Part shown: piece by piece, positions 9,304 to 62,476 of the stretch
Layout: every line of letters starts with the position of its first letter
Numbering within the stretch: the first letter of the stretch is position 1
Origin: a bacterium
Lineage (GTDB): Bacteria; Hinthialibacterota; Hinthialibacteria; Hinthialibacterales; Hinthialibacteraceae
Assembly (NCBI GenBank): GCA_041946805.1
Contig: JBHGBC010000002.1
Span: 82,354 to 146,353 of the forward strand
Direction: 5' to 3'
DNA length: 64,000 bases
Translations under genes and position numbers: made by a program
Notes under the pieces: generated by a model
The model's input: only the letters and a program-made list of their open reading frames with translations
Told to the model about the DNA's origin: nothing
Databases searched by the model: none

Positions 9304-9656
9304 GGATATCAATCCGATCCAGCTATCCAGTTCCCGCCGCGGAAAGGAACAAAAGATTCATCCGGGAAGCGCGCGCATCATGAGGAAAATCGATTCCCTT
9401 CACTCCGGTCTGAGGGCGGACACCCAGATCCGTCCCAACAAAAATACCCTCCTCCTGGCCCTCGCCCAGAAGGAGCGGAAATTCAGGGGGCGGTTTTCAT
9501 CGCTCCTTTCGAAGCGATGCGGTCCGGCGATCTAAATAAAGTATGCGCTTGCCGGATGAGCCATCATTACTCCTGCCGTACCATCAAAATCCTACCGTAT
9601 GGCGATGGGATTTTTGAATTGTCTCTCAATAATCCAACGGCAGGTTTGATTTTCCC

Positions 9657-18999: not shown

Positions 19000-19458
19000 A
19001 CTCTGAGATCCTTTTGGAATCCATCATGTGAACAGAAATTGGGGCTATTTTACCGGAAGGAACGGATCGATGGGAACGCCGGCGGCGCGAGATAAAATAT
19101 CCCCACGATTTGCTACCGGACTGCAAGTTATGAAGCGTAGGGGCACATTGCAACGTGCCCCCGCTTTGCATGTGAAAGGCCATTAAGCCGATTGGCGCGG
19201 GAGAGTGGGCTCAAGCATGTTTTCATCCTCGGATACCCGCTTTAACCTCGGGTCCTTTATGAACCGCACCAAAACAATGCTGGTTTTAACTTGGGGATAC
19301 AAAACACCTTTCTTTTCGGTTTCCCCTCTCCCTTTGGGCCGATCTCAAGTTCATGAAAATCGATGCATATATATGGCGCATCCAGCAAGTGCGTACTTAT
19401 TTTCCGATCGCCGGTTCGCATCTCTTCGAAGTGATCGATGAAAACCACCCCCCAAATT

Positions 19459-19491
19459 CCCTCTCCCTCTGGGAGAGGGCTAGGGTGAGGG
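19459..19491. repeat. REP-like element, copy B (ccctctccctctgggagagggctagggtgaggg)
   Basis: Exact reverse complement of copy C at 36168..36200. Confidence 0.75.
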
Positions 19492-19576
19492 AATTTTTGT
19501 AGGGGCGGACCTTGGTGTCCGTCCCCATCCAGAAGTGAATGGAATCGCTTTTACCTCATGATGTACGCACTTCTCG

Positions 19577-19605
19577 GATGAACCATATATATTGGATGAA
19601 CCAGA
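19577..19605 (+). promoter_or_regulatory. Perfect 10-bp direct repeat ggatgaacca-N8(tatatatt)-ggatgaacca upstream of the leuA promoter
   Basis: Seen directly. Centred ~70-100 bp upstream of the -35. Next to the shared 15-mer at 19620..19634. Candidate transcription-factor site. Confidence 0.4.
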
Positions 19606-19619
19606 AAAAAGAGGATCAT

Positions 19620-19634
19620 TAGACGGGTGGTCAT
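19620..19634. repeat. 15-mer tagacgggtggtcat, copy 2
   Basis: Identical to 15619..15633. Lies 24 bp upstream of the -35 hexamer of the leuA promoter. Confidence 0.6.
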
Positions 19635-19657
19635 TTTGATTTTCTTCTGGAATTGAG

Positions 19658-19685
19658 TTGACAGTCCCGGAATGTAGACTATAAT
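19658..19685 (+). promoter_or_regulatory. Consensus sigma70-type promoter (TTGACA-16 nt-TATAAT) driving the T-box leader/leuA
   Basis: ttgaca at 19658-19663 and tataat at 19680-19685. Both hexamers perfect. Confidence 0.6.
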
Positions 19686-19692
19686 CACACGA

Positions 19693-19966
19693 GATATAGG
19701 CCATCAAAGACGGTGAAGAGGAGTAGTAGGCGTTCCCACGGGATGGAGAGAGCCGGTGGTTGGTGCGAACCGGTTCCCGCGAATGCCGAACTCGCCTCGG
19801 AGTCGCCTCCGCGAAGCCCGGAGATCCGGGTGGTAGTCGAGGCCGGGACGCGACCGTGACATCGCGGAAACGAGGGCGGCGCCAACGGCCGCCGAACCAG
19901 GGTGGTACCACGGGGAAACCGAAAACGAACCTCGTCCCTGACACGGGACGGGGTTTTTTGTTTTTA
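19693..19966 (+). promoter_or_regulatory. T-box riboswitch leader (Leu specifier CUC) with intrinsic terminator, upstream of leuA
   Basis: AGAGAG box and GGUGG distal-loop motif. Candidate specifier GAA-CUC-G (Leu codon + purine). T-box sequence ccaGGGTGGTACCACGG (consensus AGGGUGGNACCGCG; UGGU matches tRNA-Leu discriminator A). Overlapping terminator cctcgtccc-tgacac-gggacgggg + TTTTTTGTTTTT (19929..19966). Confidence 0.7.
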
Positions 19967-20033
19967 TTACCGTTTTTATCACCGGCGCGGCCGGAAGCCA
20001 AATCGTTCTTCGATCCGGAAGGAGGTGGTGACC

Positions 20034-20189
20034 GTGTTGGGTTTAGGCAGCGAAGAGAGCGACCTGAGCGACCTTAGCGACTTGGGTTGGAAGCCGAAAA
20101 GCCGAATGGGAACGCTAAGCACAATCAATCCGCCGGCGCGGGGCACGGATCACCGCCCGGCCAGAACGGAGAAACGCAATCATGACTGA
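20034..20189 (+). other. Possible upstream ORF (~51 codons, GTG start, SD ggaaggagg) overlapping the leuA start (ATGACTGA). Contains 3x tandem 9-nt repeat agcgacctg/agcgacctt/agcgacttg (SDLSDLSDL)
   Basis: Strong SD 8 nt before GTG 20034. Stop TGA overlaps the leuA ATG. Tandem repeat at 20058..20085. Coding status unverified. Confidence 0.3.
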
Positions 20190-21726
20190 GAAAATCATAA
20201 TCTTCGATACGACGCTGCGGGACGGGGAGCAATCGCCCGGCTTCAGCATGAACATGAAGGAAAAAATCGAGTTCGCGCAGCAGCTGAAGCGGCTGAACGT
20301 GGACATCATCGAAGCCGGATTCCCGATTTCGTCGCCCGGGGATTTCGACTCGGTGAAGGCCATTGCCCAACAGGTGGAAGGGCCGCAGATCTGCGGGCTG
20401 GCGCGGGCGCTGGAGAAGGACATCGACCGCTGCTGGGAAGCGGTGCAGTACTCGAAACGGCCGCGCATCCACACCTTCATCGCCACCAGCCAGGTGCACA
20501 TGGAGAAGAAACTCAAGAAAACGCGGAAAGAGGTGCGCGACCTGGCGGTGCAGGCGGTCCAGCATGCCCGGAAATACACGGACAACGTGGAGTTTTCGAC
20601 GGAAGACGCCGCGCGCACGGAGCGGGATTACATCTGCGAGGTGGTGGAGGCGGCGATCGACGCGGGAGCCACGACCATCAACATTCCCGACACGGTGGGG
20701 TATTCCAATCCGTGGGAATTCGGCGATCTCATCGCCTATATTTTCGAGAAGGTCCCCAACGTGCATCAGGCCATCATCAGCGTGCACTGCCACAACGATC
20801 TGGGGCTGGCGGTGGCCAATTCGCTGGCGGCCATCCGCAACGGGGCGCGGCAGGTGGAATGCACCATCAACGGGATCGGCGAGCGGGCCGGCAACGCCTC
20901 GCTGGAAGAGACCGTGATGAACATCAAGACCCGGCAGGATTTCTTCCCGTTCCACACGGACGTGAACACGGAGCAGATTTATCCCGCCAGCCGCATGCTG
21001 ACGCGCTTCACGGGCATCGCGGTGCAGCCGAACAAGGCCATCGTGGGGGCGAACGCCTTCGCGCACGAGGCGGGCATCCACCAGGATGGGGTGCTCAAGG
21101 AGCGGACGACGTACGAGATCATGCGGCCGTCGGCGGTGGGGTGGACGGGCAGTTCGATGGTGCTGGGCAAGCATTCGGGGCGGCACGCGTTCGTCGCGCG
21201 GCTCTCCGAGCTGGGCGTCACCCTGGAGGGGCCGGCGCTGGAGAACGCCTTCAACGCCTTCAAGGAACTGGCCGACCGCAAGAAGACCGTTTTCGACGAG
21301 GACCTGATCGCCATCGTGGACGAGCAGACGCGGAGCGTCGAGCAGGCGCGCTTTGTGCTGCAAGACCTGTTCATCAAGATCGGGCCGGACATGAAGCCGT
21401 CCGCGACGGTGCGCATCCAGGCCAACGGGGAAACGCTCGAAGGCAGCGGGACGGGCGACGGAGCGCTGGACGCGGCGTTTTCGATCATCAAGCAGCTGAC
21501 CGGCATGCAGGAAGCGGTGCTGGTGGATTACAGCGTCGGAGCGGTCACCGTGGGAACGGACGCGCAAGGCTCGGCGCGGGTGGTGCTCAAGAAAAATAAC
21601 CGGGAAGCGGTGGGCCGCGGGACGGACACGGACGTGATCCGGGCCAGCGTGAAGGCGTTCCTCAACGCGGTCAACCGCCTGTGCACGGCCGCCGAGCGGG
21701 AGAAGGAAGTTACGCCGTCGGTGTGA
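20182..21726 (+). CDS. leuA: 2-isopropylmalate synthase
   Basis: [24 protein letters not shown]…[16 protein letters not shown]… conserved throughout. 514 aa with C-terminal LeuA dimerisation/regulatory domain. Confidence 0.95.
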
Positions 21727-21756
21727 CGGCCTCCCATCCATCGGATTGCATCATTT

Positions 21757-21788
21757 CCCGGGGGTGTTCGAAAGGATGCCCCCGGGGG
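21757..21788. terminator. GC-rich hairpin (cccggggg-N15-cccccggg) between convergent leuA and methyltransferase genes
   Basis: 8-bp G/C stem. Weak U-tract (gtttgtaaatg). Possible bidirectional terminator. Confidence 0.3.
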
Positions 21789-21808: not shown

Positions 21809-22474
21809 TCATAAATCAGGTATTAAAAGGCCCTGGATGTGGGTTTTTAAAACAGGTTTTGTATGGTTCGAATAAGTTGGCCAGGTAGGTTGATAATCGT
21901 CCACTTCATTTCCCCACTGTGTCCAATGATTTCTTTTACCCCGTGCAAAGAGTTCAAGATATGGACCTGGACTACAAGATTCGATAATGGAATATAGTTC
22001 ATCTGGTTTCCGGGAATGTTCTCGTTTTTGCGCACGAATGATATTTACTTGTTTGCGGCCAGGGGGAAGTGTACGAAGATGACCACGCACACCAAATAAC
22101 ACTAATTCAGTTGTATTTCTGAAATAAAAACCAACCCCACGGCCATCTGGTCCTCCATCTTTTCTTATCTTATGCCAAACCAGGTTTGTTTTATAAATAT
22201 ACCCCCAAGATTTCATAACTTCTAAACCTTCTAACAGTAATGCATTAGGTACCCAGAGGTATAAATGACTTTGATCGGCTGACACAGAACATATAGGAAG
22301 ATTTTTTATTATATCGAGTTTCAATGTTTCATAGCGGGATAAACGCTTATGTTCAGGGGCCATTTTCCCCGTTCGATTAACAAATTGCCAAGGGGGATCC
22401 GCTAGTATTGTACCAAATTTCTGCCCATTTATTGTTTTTAATAAATCTTCTGAAATTTCATCTAATATTTTCAT
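21809..22474 (-). CDS. DNA methyltransferase, MT-A70 family (DPPW motif; N6-adenine/N4-cytosine beta-class)
   Basis: ILADPPWQF (motif IV DPPW), …RYETLKLDIIKNLP…LYLWVPNA… typical of MT-A70-like bacterial MTases. Start codon overlaps the stop of the upstream endonuclease gene (ATGA at 22474). Low-GC DNA. Confidence 0.75.
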   Translation of the reverse strand: MKILDEISEDLLKTINGQKFGTILADPPWQFVNRTGKMAPEHKRLSRYETLKLDIIKNLPICSVSADQSHLYLWVPNALLLEGLEVMKSWGYIYKTNLVWHKIRKDGGPDGRGVGFYFRNTTELVLFGVRGHLRTLPPGRKQVNIIRAQKREHSRKPDELYSIIESCSPGPYLELFARGKRNHWTQWGNEVDDYQPTWPTYSNHTKPVLKTHIQGLLIPDL

Positions 22475-23064
22475 TATTCATCCTCAATATATAACTTTCG
22501 GGTAATTCCGAATATCAAGATAGGACATCCGCCACCGCCACCACCCTCTATTCTTGGTAATAATCTGCTCATATGAGTAGTTGAAGTTCCATATGATTTG
22601 CCTCTTCCAATCGAATCAAATATTTCTTGAAGTTCATCACAACGAGTAATTATTATGCCAATACTGATTGCTCTTAGATCAAACAAGAGTCTAAAATTAT
22701 TCAAATCACGGTCAAAAAATGGATCCTTGTTATTCCATTCAATTTCTAGAGCTATGCGGTTTTTATAGCAATCAATTTTGTGTGTCGGAGTTTCCATCGC
22801 ATGGTCATCAACCACAACTTTCGTTGAAAAATCTTTTTCTTGCCATCCTCGAGCATATAAAAAATGATCAATGAATTCCGATATTTTAGATTTTCGACCC
22901 CCACCGATGGTTATCCAACTCTTATAAAACCTGAATTTCATTAAAACTTCAATCAAATCATTCCACTCATTTTGGAAATCATTTTCTAGAATTGCCGAAG
23001 CATGTTTCCATTCATGAATCTCGTAATTTTCTTGAATATATGATGGAAATCTTTCTACAGTCAT
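22474..23064 (-). CDS. Type II restriction endonuclease, BglII/BstYI-like fold
   Basis: …IALEIEWNNKDPFFDRDLNNFRLLFDLRAISIGIIITRCDE… parallels the BglII catalytic core (…EVQFSNYPFLLNNTVRSELF…KVAIIITKG…). 196 aa. Translationally coupled to the MTase. AT-rich promoter region 23065-23170. Confidence 0.55.
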   Translation of the reverse strand: MTVERFPSYIQENYEIHEWKHASAILENDFQNEWNDLIEVLMKFRFYKSWITIGGGRKSKISEFIDHFLYARGWQEKDFSTKVVVDDHAMETPTHKIDCYKNRIALEIEWNNKDPFFDRDLNNFRLLFDLRAISIGIIITRCDELQEIFDSIGRGKSYGTSTTHMSRLLPRIEGGGGGGCPILIFGITRKLYIEDE

Positions 23065-34671: not shown

Positions 34672-34744
34672 GGGCCATTAGCTCAACCGGTAGAGCATCC
34701 GACTCTTAATCGGCAGGTTGAAGGTTCGATTCCTTCATGGCCCA
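34672..34744 (+). tRNA. tRNA-Lys (anticodon CUU)
   Basis: GGGCCATTAGCTCAACCGGTAGAGCATCCGACTCTTAATCGGCAGGTTGAAGGTTCGATTCCTTCATGGCCCA. Cloverleaf with 7-bp acceptor stem, anticodon loop CU-CUU-AA, T-loop GGTTCGATTCC. No encoded CCA. Confidence 0.9.
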
Positions 34745-36167: not shown

Positions 36168-36200
36168 CCCTCACCCTAGCCCTCTCCCAGAGGGAGAGGG
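36168..36200. repeat. REP-like element, copy C (reverse orientation; ccctcaccctagccctctcccagagggagaggg)
   Basis: Exact reverse complement of copy B (19459..19491). Flanked by gaattc/gaatt on both copies. Confidence 0.75.
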
Positions 36201-36325
36201 AATTCATGGCTCGGACCGGCATTTGTCCCAGGGCTAAAAGCCCTGGGCTAGTTTAAACACACCGCCGGCGTTTGAAAACCAGACCGCATTCCTGGAAATC
36301 ATTTGTTAACATGTCGAAATAGACC

Positions 36326-61494: not shown

Positions 61495-62287
61495 TTTTTT
61501 TGGAATTTTTCGGGATTTTGTTCCACAACATGGGATAGTAGCAGAGTCGGAGGGCGGTTTCAAGCGAATTTTGCGAAAAATAAGCACCTAAATTCTTTTT
61601 TCCAAGCCATTTAAGTGTACATTTGTGCAGTAAATCCCAGACTGTTTCGATGGGTAGAAATCCCAAATACATGAGGTTCTTCGCGATTAAATTACAGACT
61701 CTCTAATTTGATTGATTCATCCGCCGAAACGTGTTACGCAGAGTGGAATCGGTATTACTCATACCGCCAAGAGGCTTTCCCCCACTCATATCCCGATCCG
61801 GAAGGTGGATACACCCATCCACAAGGAAATCTCCCATACTATAACCTTTTTATAATCAGGAAGATACAATCGGAAAGAGCCGTAGGGGCGCCGCAACCGG
61901 AAGCAAAGAACCGGGCAATCGATGATCCGGGGAGCAGGGGCTGGATGAATCGGGAGAGAGTATTGCAACGGCTAGTACATTAAGAACTTAGACATCCGGG
62001 TACTATGTACGGGATGGAGAAAAAGGTATTACCTCCCCGCAAGGAAGCGGGCGGATGCCAAGGTACACCCTGACGTAATTTCCCCCAACCTATCCCAAAG
62101 ACAGAGATGTTCTTTGCCCCGAAGTCTTGATCACACAATAGAACTTCATGTCCCTCCGGTTAGTGAATCCATGACGGGCGAAATCGCATTTCAATTCCAA
62201 TTCTCCAAACCGAAAAGAGAAACTACTTTCTTCCCCAGCGATCATTGGATCCAGCCGGGGGATAGACGGTGAAACAAGGTTTTCCCG

Positions 62288-62317
62288 CACCCTGGCCCTC
62301 TCCCAGAGGGCCAGGGG
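62288..62317. repeat. REP-like element, copy D (caccctggccctctcccagagggccagggg), a near-perfect 12-bp palindrome
   Basis: ccctggccctct-ccc-agagggccaggg. Intergenic between the mraZ upstream region and the aminotransferase gene. Confidence 0.65.
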
Positions 62318-62476
62318 ATAGCGGATGGCTCTCTCCCACCCGTCGAATCGATAGCCGGCCGCGCGTTCGGAAAAATGTACGCACTTATCGGATGAACCTT
62401 AATGATCCTTTTGCGAGCGGGTACACGGCGGCAAGCCAAGAAAGGCCGGCCGGATCCCATTTCGCCAGCCTTCCTT

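Follow-up and report, generated by a model that had tools for sequence, protein, structure and literature searches.

Why does a biosynthetic gene that is already preceded by a riboswitch stand so far behind it? The question is raised by leuA, which encodes a 2-isopropylmalate synthase of 514 amino acids at 20182..21726 (+) in a bacterial DNA stretch of 64,000 nucleotides (nt) (GenBank assembly GCA_041946805.1, contig JBHGBC010000002.1, positions 82,354 to 146,353). This whole stretch is called the window here, and coordinates refer to it unless another sequence is named. A T-box riboswitch with an intrinsic terminator lies 5' of leuA, and in the window the spacer between the T-box terminator and the Shine-Dalgarno (SD) sequence of leuA measures 240 nt. 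In the ordinary T-box leaders L013 (Clostridia, leuA) and L008 (ilvB), the SD of the regulated gene lay directly 3' of the terminator and there was no additional open reading frame.

We found that the spacer holds an upstream open reading frame (uORF) whose N-terminal part is rich in rare Leu codons, whose stop lies on the start of leuA and whose ribosome-binding site is predicted to be closed by a long-range helix. We consider it fairly probable, on comparative sequence evidence, that leuA is governed by a two-stage leader, both stages of which would read the charging of tRNA-Leu: the T-box at the level of transcription and the rare-Leu uORF at the level of translation.

Results

The leuA locus and the leaders compared

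The LeuA protein scored 727.8 bits against TIGR00973 (cut-off 598.7) and 774.7 bits against NF002086, and contained the Pfam domains HMGL-like, HCS_D2 and LeuA_dimer. The gene is monocistronic here, with flanking genes on the minus strand, and the G+C content of the window is ~59%. The nearest LeuA (96% identity) is that of a metagenome-assembled genome labelled Candidatus Omnitrophota. Further relatives are likewise labelled Omnitrophota, and another belongs to Candidatus Hinthialibacter antarcticus (phylum Hinthialibacterota). These labels agree with a preliminary description of the window, made from the sequence alone, which had taken the host to be a non-Firmicute. A genome scan, a metagenome scan, a peptide-profile search and a LeuA search together gave a comparison set of 19 distinct leuA leaders (numbered with L where they are named below), labelled Omnitrophota or Hinthialibacterota and with LeuA identities of 62-96%.

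The uORF is conserved and ends on the start of leuA

The preliminary description had proposed a GTG-initiated ORF of ~51 codons with a strong SD and an overlap with leuA. This ORF was present as proposed (Table 1), its TGA at 20187-20189 overlapping the leuA ATG (20182) as ATGACTGA, and the comparison of leuA leaders in relatives that had been suggested at the time showed it to be conserved in 19/19. Its start codon (GTG in 16 leaders, ATG in 3) was aligned exactly 8 nt after GGAGG in every case. The length ranged from 32 to 60 codons, and in each leader the frame ran open as far as the leuA start. Across these spans, no stops were counted in the uORF frame, versus 57 and 35 in the two alternative frames. 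The chance product for such an open frame was ~2.5e-10 over 13 representative lineages, a rough value because the lineages are related.

Selection was also visible at the level of codons. Pairwise diversity over codons 1-15 was 0.235, 0.182 and 0.404 at codon positions 1, 2 and 3, respectively. Codons 7-14 (E-E-S-D-L-S/D-D/E-L) showed almost only synonymous change, and all four CTN codons as well as TTR occurred at the Leu positions. The resulting peptide core, [DE]-E-S-D-L-[SD]-[DE]-L (window 20052-20075), was found in 18 of the 19 leaders, with AGC as the Ser codon throughout; L074 carries MELDPGDLPL in its place. In the first 12 leaders, the E, S, D and L residues at positions 8, 9, 10, 11 and 14 were invariant despite saturated synonymous change. 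Asp or Glu preceded 50 of the 91 N-terminal Leu residues. The conservation of the core may point to a contribution of the nascent chain. A conserved RNA structure as the cause of the conserved N-terminal codons was rejected, as RNAalifold found none there and the substitutions were synonymous. A triple 9-nt repeat had been described in this part of the uORF. The repeat is present (20057-20081, 2.8 copies, 93% match according to Tandem Repeats Finder) and encodes SDLSDLSDL; only its first two SDL units are conserved, and these as peptide, not as DNA.

The uORF peptide had no Pfam or NCBIfam family match. A search of 5.8e9 proteins with a profile of the peptide retrieved only six clusters. On the contigs examined, which covered four of these clusters, they lay directly 5' of leuA, and the remaining two matched leaders already in the set (L001-type and L030). 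Two further observations concern the middle of the uORF. It contains the tandem repeat AAGCCGAA (two copies, region 20091-20106), and the segment at 20094-20136, together with its equivalents, is A/C-rich and G/T-poor (A 180, C 131, G 102, T 52 over the leaders). Its composition may simply keep it free of structure, or it may serve as a loading site for Rho.

The uORF stop lay between -2 and +17 relative to the leuA ATG in all 19 leaders, as ATGA (13 leaders), ATGAnTGA (3), TAATG (1) or a stop 8 or 17 nt inside leuA (2). The length of the uORF, its C-terminal sequence and its frame relative to leuA all varied, and the stop still tracked the leuA start. In L033 (95% LeuA identity), a frameshift near the uORF end relative to the window switched the ATGAnTGA stop to an ATGA stop. 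Since the stop was kept through frameshift and length change, the constraint is on terminating at the leuA start and not on the C-terminal peptide. Taken from these patterns of substitutions and stops, the uORF is, by all indications, a translated ORF under selection.

The two SD sequences differed strongly in strength. The duplex with CACCUCCUUA had a calculated energy of -16.2 kcal/mol for the uORF SD of the window versus -6.6 kcal/mol for the leuA SD. A near-maximal uORF SD (~-16 kcal/mol) and the same contrast with the leuA SD were found in 17/19 leaders. The leuA SD was conserved as (A)AGGA or GGAG whatever the uORF frame, at -5.4 to -9.3 kcal/mol. A strong uORF SD, a weak leuA SD and a stop-start overlap are, judged by sequence, the anatomy of translational coupling. 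As the stop overlaps a leuA start with a weak SD, ribosomes finishing the uORF would be delivered to the leuA start.

Rare Leu codons at the N-terminus of the uORF

The bias of the uORF towards rare Leu codons had been missed in the preliminary description. It makes the uORF look like a leucine sensor. Leu made up 25% of uORF codons 2-20 in the 19 leaders versus 5.8% in the 19 LeuA proteins. The codons CTT, CTA and TTA accounted for 64 of the 91 uORF Leu codons in this region (70%) versus 27 of 484 (5.6%) in LeuA. In the window, LeuA uses only CTG (23) and CTC (7), and the uORF uses TTG, TTA, CTG, CTT and TTG. The mean relative synonymous codon usage over codons 2-20 was 0.62 for Leu versus 1.25 for the other degenerate codons (p = 6e-19 for all leaders, p = 5e-15 for 12 representatives). 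This bias towards rare codons was specific to Leu and gone after codon 20; the non-Leu codons were ordinary. A Leu codon was present within codons 2-5 in 19/19 leaders, and the last N-terminal Leu fell between codons 10 and 20. CTT and CTC together formed 43% of the N-terminal Leu codons of the uORF versus 14% in LeuA. Both are read by tRNA-Leu(GAG), the same tRNA that a CUC specifier selects.

No terminator-like site was found at 20034-20400. Neither the Leu_leader nor the leu-phe_leader family of Rfam was matched: RF00512 gave nothing, and RF01743 reached 15.5 bits (gathering score 70) at a different site. With no terminator after the uORF and no match to an Rfam leader, the uORF does not fit classical attenuation, and any effect that it has must be translational.

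A predicted long-range helix over the ribosome-binding site of the uORF

A second element missed in the preliminary description is a helix predicted to sequester the ribosome-binding site of the uORF, which is well supported by comparative modelling. RNAalifold, applied to 12 leaders, paired GGUGGUG and the start codon with a C-rich segment ~125 nt downstream. The same helix was obtained in independent single-sequence folds, with a probability of 0.83-1.0 in 9/12 leaders. L033 and L002 favoured a local hairpin, and L004/L030 had the helix in the minimum free energy structure, in a different register. The energy of the helix duplex was -27.3 kcal/mol in the window. In 19/19 leaders, the best partner of the segment around the uORF start (-16 to +6) was located at -49 to -19 from the leuA ATG, and a near-continuous duplex of 15-18 base pairs (bp) with -18 to -34 kcal/mol was formed in all of them. 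The 3' arm falls within the uORF's 3' part, where the peptide is not conserved and the constraint is on the RNA.

The spacers between SD and start codon varied (GACC, GAGC, GCGC, GAUC, UUCC, UCUCG, GUUC and others), and complementary changes in the 3' arm mirrored this variation. In an alignment-free test, every 5' arm was combined with the same segment (-55 to -16) from each of the leaders. Cognate arms were more stable in 10/10 spacer classes (Wilcoxon p = 0.002; p = 5e-5 for all 19 leaders). An unfitted MAFFT alignment served to score pairing and covariation in the 8-bp core. Here, 86.8% of cells were paired versus 74.7% in shuffles (0/500 reached the observed value), and the covariation score was 0.353 versus 0.146 (0/500), with changes on both sides in five of the eight pairs. 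In slid controls of the core, 36-61% of cells were paired.

In most leaders, a local hairpin competes for the 3' arm and takes up about half to three quarters of its nucleotides. From the folding calculations, it is a possible alternative, 'open' conformation. Its role as a universal 'anti-anti' element was rejected, as the hairpin is only partly conserved.

The T-box, its terminator and the promoter

An Rfam scan supported the Leu T-box of the preliminary description with a match to the full RF00230 model (19704-19942 (+), model positions 1-219) of 104 bits (gathering score 93; E = 7e-22) and a CUC (Leu) specifier. The other parts that had been named were all placed by alignment and folding. 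The covariance-model alignment put AGAGA (the AG bulge) at 19747-19751 and the distal loop GGUGGUUGGUG at 19755-19765, next to the specifier and the T-box sequence (Table 1). The AG bulge, the distal loop and the specifier loop were conserved in relatives, and the specifier context GAACTCGCC was invariant in all those aligned. The acceptor-binding bulge UGGU (19903-19906, in AGGGUGGUACCACGG) is predicted to pair with a tRNA 3' end ACCA, with A as the discriminator; tRNA-Leu has discriminator A73. Folding of the alternatives, which had been proposed as a check, gave -13.4 kcal/mol for an antiterminator with a 7-nt bulge versus -21 kcal/mol for the terminator (z = -4.6; 0/200 shuffles equally stable). 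The two are mutually exclusive, the 5' arm of the terminator stem overlapping the 3' half of the antiterminator in the shared CCUCGUCCC.

RF00230 also scored above the gathering score 5' of leuA in the 17 of the 18 other distinct leaders that were scanned and in the near-duplicate L029. L034, a near-duplicate grouped with L001, is truncated inside its T-box and showed no match. The motif GAACUCG was present in every leader whose T-box region is covered. By sequence, the T-box itself is best described as an ordinary member of its family in an unusual host. A scan of 19560-20260 by Rfam E-value returned noise only, apart from the T-box; no established RNA family matched the 240-nt spacer. The tandem repeat GTTTTTATYACC (two copies, region 19960-19984) directly follows the terminator and is not conserved in the aligned relatives.

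The order T-box, terminator, uORF and leuA held in 19/19 leaders. The only close relatives without the T-box, L003/L031 (LeuA identity 78%), also lacked the uORF. The T-box and the uORF, present together in 19/19 leaders and both absent in L003/L031, therefore behave as one module. The absence of both suggests that this pair lost the entire leader module or had it replaced. A sequence like a repetitive extragenic palindromic (REP) unit was found upstream in L003 (3380-4020, in a bin labelled Falkowbacteria) and in L031, instead of the T-box and the uORF.

The promoter that had been described 5' of the T-box was confirmed with 12/12 matches to the consensus, and TTGAC together with TATAAT was kept in 4/5 aligned relatives (L001, L025, L002, L004).

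Table 1. Positions of the leuA leader elements in the window.
Feature	Position	Strand	Details
Sigma-70-type promoter	TTGACA 19658-19663; TATAAT 19680-19685	+	16-nt spacer; 12/12 consensus match
T-box leader, class I transcriptional type	19704..19942	+	RF00230; Stem I, Stem II/IIA-B region, Stem III, antiterminator
Specifier codon CUC (Leu)	19791..19793	+	context GAA-CUC-G, 19788-19794; covariance-model alignment
T-box sequence AGGGUGGUACCACGG	19899..19913	+	covariance-model alignment
Intrinsic terminator	stem 19927-19956; T-run 19954-19965	+	12 pairs, 7 G-C
uORF SD AAGGAGGUG (DNA AAGGAGGTG)	20019..20027	+	9 nt complementary to the 16S 3' end
Long-range helix (predicted), 5' arm	20020..20039	+	3' part of the SD, spacer, GUG start, next 3 nt
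uORF	20034..20189	+	GTG start, 51 codons, TGA at 20187-20189
Leu control-codon region (putative)	20037..20084	+	codons 2-17; L2 TTG, L4 TTA, L11 CTG, L14 CTT, L17 TTG
Local hairpin (predicted)	20132..20161	+	20132-20141 with 20153-20161; competes for the 3' arm
Long-range helix (predicted), 3' arm GGGCACGGAUCACCGCCCGGCCA	20141..20163	+	-41 to -19 from the leuA ATG
leuA SD GGAG (weak)	20168..20171	+	10 nt before the ATG

Repeats, mobile elements and neighbouring genes

The block shared with the nearest relatives comprised only 19633-21786, and its start (19633-19638) lies just 5' of the -35 box. Two repeats upstream of the promoter had been reported. The 10-bp direct repeat GGATGAACCA is exact, with copies at 19576 and 19594. 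An operator role was rejected because it is not kept even in relatives with ~90% identical DNA and homology starts only at 19633. The repeat is outside the block common to relatives, and its first copy is the end of a mobile element, namely the right terminal inverted repeat of a ~220-bp element (about 19375-19588) resembling miniature inverted-repeat transposable elements (MITEs). The second reported repeat, the 15-mer TAGACGGGTGGTCAT at 19620 and 15619, is likewise exact and cannot be extended in either direction. About four exact 15-mer pairs are expected in 64 kb on both strands (64000^2 / 4^15), so the recurrence was rejected as a meaningful repeat; it is at chance level and unrelated to the leader. 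A perfect 14-nt inverted match, GGGGAAACCGAAAA, between 19313-19326 and 19912-19925 (the antiterminator loop) does not extend further and is probably meaningless, about eight such pairs being expected by chance in 64 kb.

The MITE-like element sits just 5' of the leuA promoter and is bounded by terminal inverted repeats of ~24 nt, ATGGCGCATCCAGCAAGTGCGTAC and GTACGCACTTCTCGGATGAACCAT. The window contains a second copy at 9357-9532 (-), 81% identical over 177 nt, and an end fragment at 62375-62398. A REP-like palindromic unit, CCCTCTCCCTCTGGGAGAGGGCTAGGGTGAGGG, occurs at 19459-19491, 36168-36204 (-), 114-150 and 62282-62310. In relatives, a 66-nt match to window 19456-19521, the segment holding this unit, was located 3' of leuA (L001 5661-5724).

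Directly 3' of leuA, a low-GC segment (46%) at 21809-23064 (-) encodes a methyltransferase of the MT-A70 family and a BglII-like restriction endonuclease. It is probably an inserted restriction-modification island, because homology with the nearest relatives ends at 21786. The sole tRNA gene of the window is tRNA-Lys(CUU) at 34672-34744; no tRNA-Leu gene was found there. In the Clostridia locus L013, positions 1527-1609 matched the c-di-GMP-II riboswitch (RF01786, 58.9 bits), which has no relation to the leuA leader.

Discussion

A model for two-stage control

How could a T-box and a uORF act together on leuA? In the first stage, as suggested by the sequence, uncharged tRNA-Leu(GAG) would stabilise the antiterminator; otherwise the 12-bp terminator would halt transcription at ~19965. 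In read-through RNA, the uORF SD would emerge ~125 nt ahead of its sequestering partner, which would allow ribosomes to load co-transcriptionally. If Leu-tRNA is scarce, a ribosome would stall with the Leu codon at positions 2-5 in its A site and would still cover the ribosome-binding site. Alternatively, it would stall at codons 8-19 and the following ribosome would be parked on the uORF start codon. Either way, the 5' arm would be covered, the helix would be kept from closing, and ribosomes would trickle on to the leuA start. If Leu-tRNA is ample, the site would clear fast, the 3' arm would capture the uORF ribosome-binding site and the mRNA would fall silent. The second stage would add a fast off-switch for mRNAs that leaked through the T-box or were left over.

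In its most specific form, which we put forward tentatively and regard as possible, this would be a self-latching switch. The dwell time on rare Leu codons would decide whether the helix closes and silences the uORF together with the coupled leuA, ESDLSDL would aid pausing or drop-off, and the leader would be the second natural case, after rtpLP, the leader-peptide ORF of the Bacillus subtilis at operon, of a T-box and then the ribosome reading the charging of a single tRNA.

Several points weigh against this two-stage reading. The 19 leaders belong to one clade and all come from metagenome assemblies, and their counts are not fully independent. A pure codon sensor would not require the strict E-S-D conservation seen between the Leu codons. 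The energy of whole-leader folding was not unusual (z = -0.09). The local hairpin is not universal (it is absent in L074), is weaker than the helix and was mostly non-significant versus shuffles. By calculation, opening the core leuA site (-17 to +13) costs 6.0 kcal/mol with the uORF site free versus 6.3 kcal/mol with the site occupied. Direct masking of the leuA SD by the helix was dropped on this unchanged opening cost. Since the cost is equal in both states, the link to leuA must run via coupling or via an upstream standby region. Finally, under coupling, stalling in the uORF alone should lower the translation of leuA. We infer the direction of the translational effect, and the adaptive direction rests on the presumed 'hold-open' kinetics given above.

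Comparison with known leaders

The combination of a T-box with rtpLP in the B. subtilis at leader was reportedly described by Chen and Yanofsky in 2003 and 2004. In this leader, which belongs to the rtpA-ycbK operon, a Trp T-box is followed by the rtpLP leader-peptide ORF, which modulates downstream translation (PMC2311275). The leuA leader resembles it in having a T-box and, between terminator and gene, a short ORF with codons of the same amino acid, so that charging would be sensed twice. The two leaders differ in the amino acid (Leu instead of Trp), the phylum and the regulated gene, and they share no sequence homology. The uORF has 32-60 codons, whereas rtpLP is said to have 10. Its N-terminal control codons lie beside its own ribosome-binding site, and it has a stop-start overlap and a conserved peptide core. 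To our knowledge, the long-range helix sequestering the ribosome-binding site has no counterpart in the at leader.

T-boxes before leuA are known outside the Firmicutes from Geobacter and Pelobacter (PMC2494555). These share the gene and a non-Firmicute host with the leader described here, and are set apart by their description, which includes no uORF. Rare Leu codons in the enterobacterial leu leader were reportedly studied by Carter et al. in 1986. The leader peptide of this operon (leuL) contains rare Leu control codons (PMC1183508) and is similar to the uORF as a leader ORF, rich in such codons, 5' of leuA. However, leuL controls a downstream terminator and acts by transcription attenuation, whereas here the sole terminator lies 5' of the uORF and is part of the T-box.

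In the ermC and cat leader peptides and in the long-range 5'-3' pairing of hok/mok, the position of a ribosome or a long-range helix sets the availability of a ribosome-binding site, and mok and hok are translationally coupled. There, either it is the downstream gene whose site is sequestered, or the switch is set off by an antibiotic or by RNA processing. In the leuA leader, by contrast, the sequestered site belongs to the leader ORF itself, and the supply of Leu-tRNA is presumed to act as the trigger. In the open-access papers searched, we found no T-box in Omnitrophica/Omnitrophota and no T-box-coupled leader ORF besides rtpLP.

Alternative explanations

An unlikely competitor reverses the role of uORF translation. 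If the uORF worked by occlusion in the manner of rtpLP, ribosomes terminating on the leuA SD and ATG would block initiation at ample Leu, and an early stall under Leu limitation would free leuA's own SD; the physiological direction would be the same as in the two-stage reading that we prefer. Occlusion is how the one T-box and leader-peptide tandem known so far is documented to work (PMC2311275). It would account for the uORF stop on the leuA start in 19/19 leaders, for the rarity of the Leu control codons and for a leuA SD that is conserved in every uORF frame. That SD is weak, however (-5 to -9 kcal/mol), and overlaps of the ATGA type are generally held to promote re-initiation rather than blocking. 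Occlusion also gives no role to a conserved, co-varying helix over the uORF ribosome-binding site. The same helix speaks against the quite unlikely case that the uORF senses no Leu at all and is a constitutive 'launch pad' that, like a bicistronic design, only loads ribosomes, unfolds the leader and hands over to leuA. Coupling uORFs are common in bacteria (PMC13285730), and a very strong uORF SD, the stop-start overlap and a weak leuA SD are what such a function would lead one to expect. It would nevertheless leave several features unexplained: selection for a helix that closes the ribosome-binding site of the launch pad itself, the conserved peptide core, the 25% Leu and the Leu-specific rare-codon bias limited to codons 2-20.

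The peptide core could itself be the selected product. The acidic N-terminal peptide [DE]ESDL[SD][DE]L might pause or destabilise the ribosome while still nascent, or might work as a small protein partner of LeuA, made through coupling in a fixed ratio to it. The invariant E, S, D and L positions in the first 12 leaders and the Asp or Glu before 50/91 Leu residues would fit such an activity, and MELDPGDLPL of L074 resembles acidic/proline N-terminal motifs that are reported, in work on MgtL, to destabilise ribosomes. We nonetheless judge an active peptide very unlikely as the main explanation; it is compatible with the codon-sensor reading and does not exclude it. The motif comprises just 7-8 residues, and its distances to the start (4-11 codons) and to the stop (17-46 codons) vary. 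The remaining peptide is unconserved and constrained at the RNA level, the uORF peptide belongs to no known family, and rare codons would be unexpected in a gene selected for its product. It is highly improbable that the helix is an element of RNA processing or stability, such as an RNase III site or a protective stem, to which the uORF is incidental. A duplex of 15-18 bp and -18 to -34 kcal/mol in all leaders would suit such a function, but it is built precisely from the SD, the spacer and the start codon of a conserved ORF, and the evidence for selection on the uORF is independent of the helix.

Implications

The usual view of T-boxes is that of self-sufficient switches found in Gram-positive bacteria. 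The T-box described here belongs to the uncultured Omnitrophota/Hinthialibacterota lineage and, if the two-stage reading is true, it would be hard-wired throughout the clade to a second, ribosome-dependent sensor. Such a leader would allow biosynthetic mRNAs that have already been made to be shut off quickly when the amino acid returns, which is beyond the reach of a transcriptional riboswitch. It would also represent a regulatory design that switches the ribosome-binding site of the leader ORF itself, with a small conserved peptide and codon motif that might be reused in synthetic amino-acid sensors. 'Empty' spacers of ~200 nt between riboswitch terminators and genes can thus hide conserved coding and structural elements.

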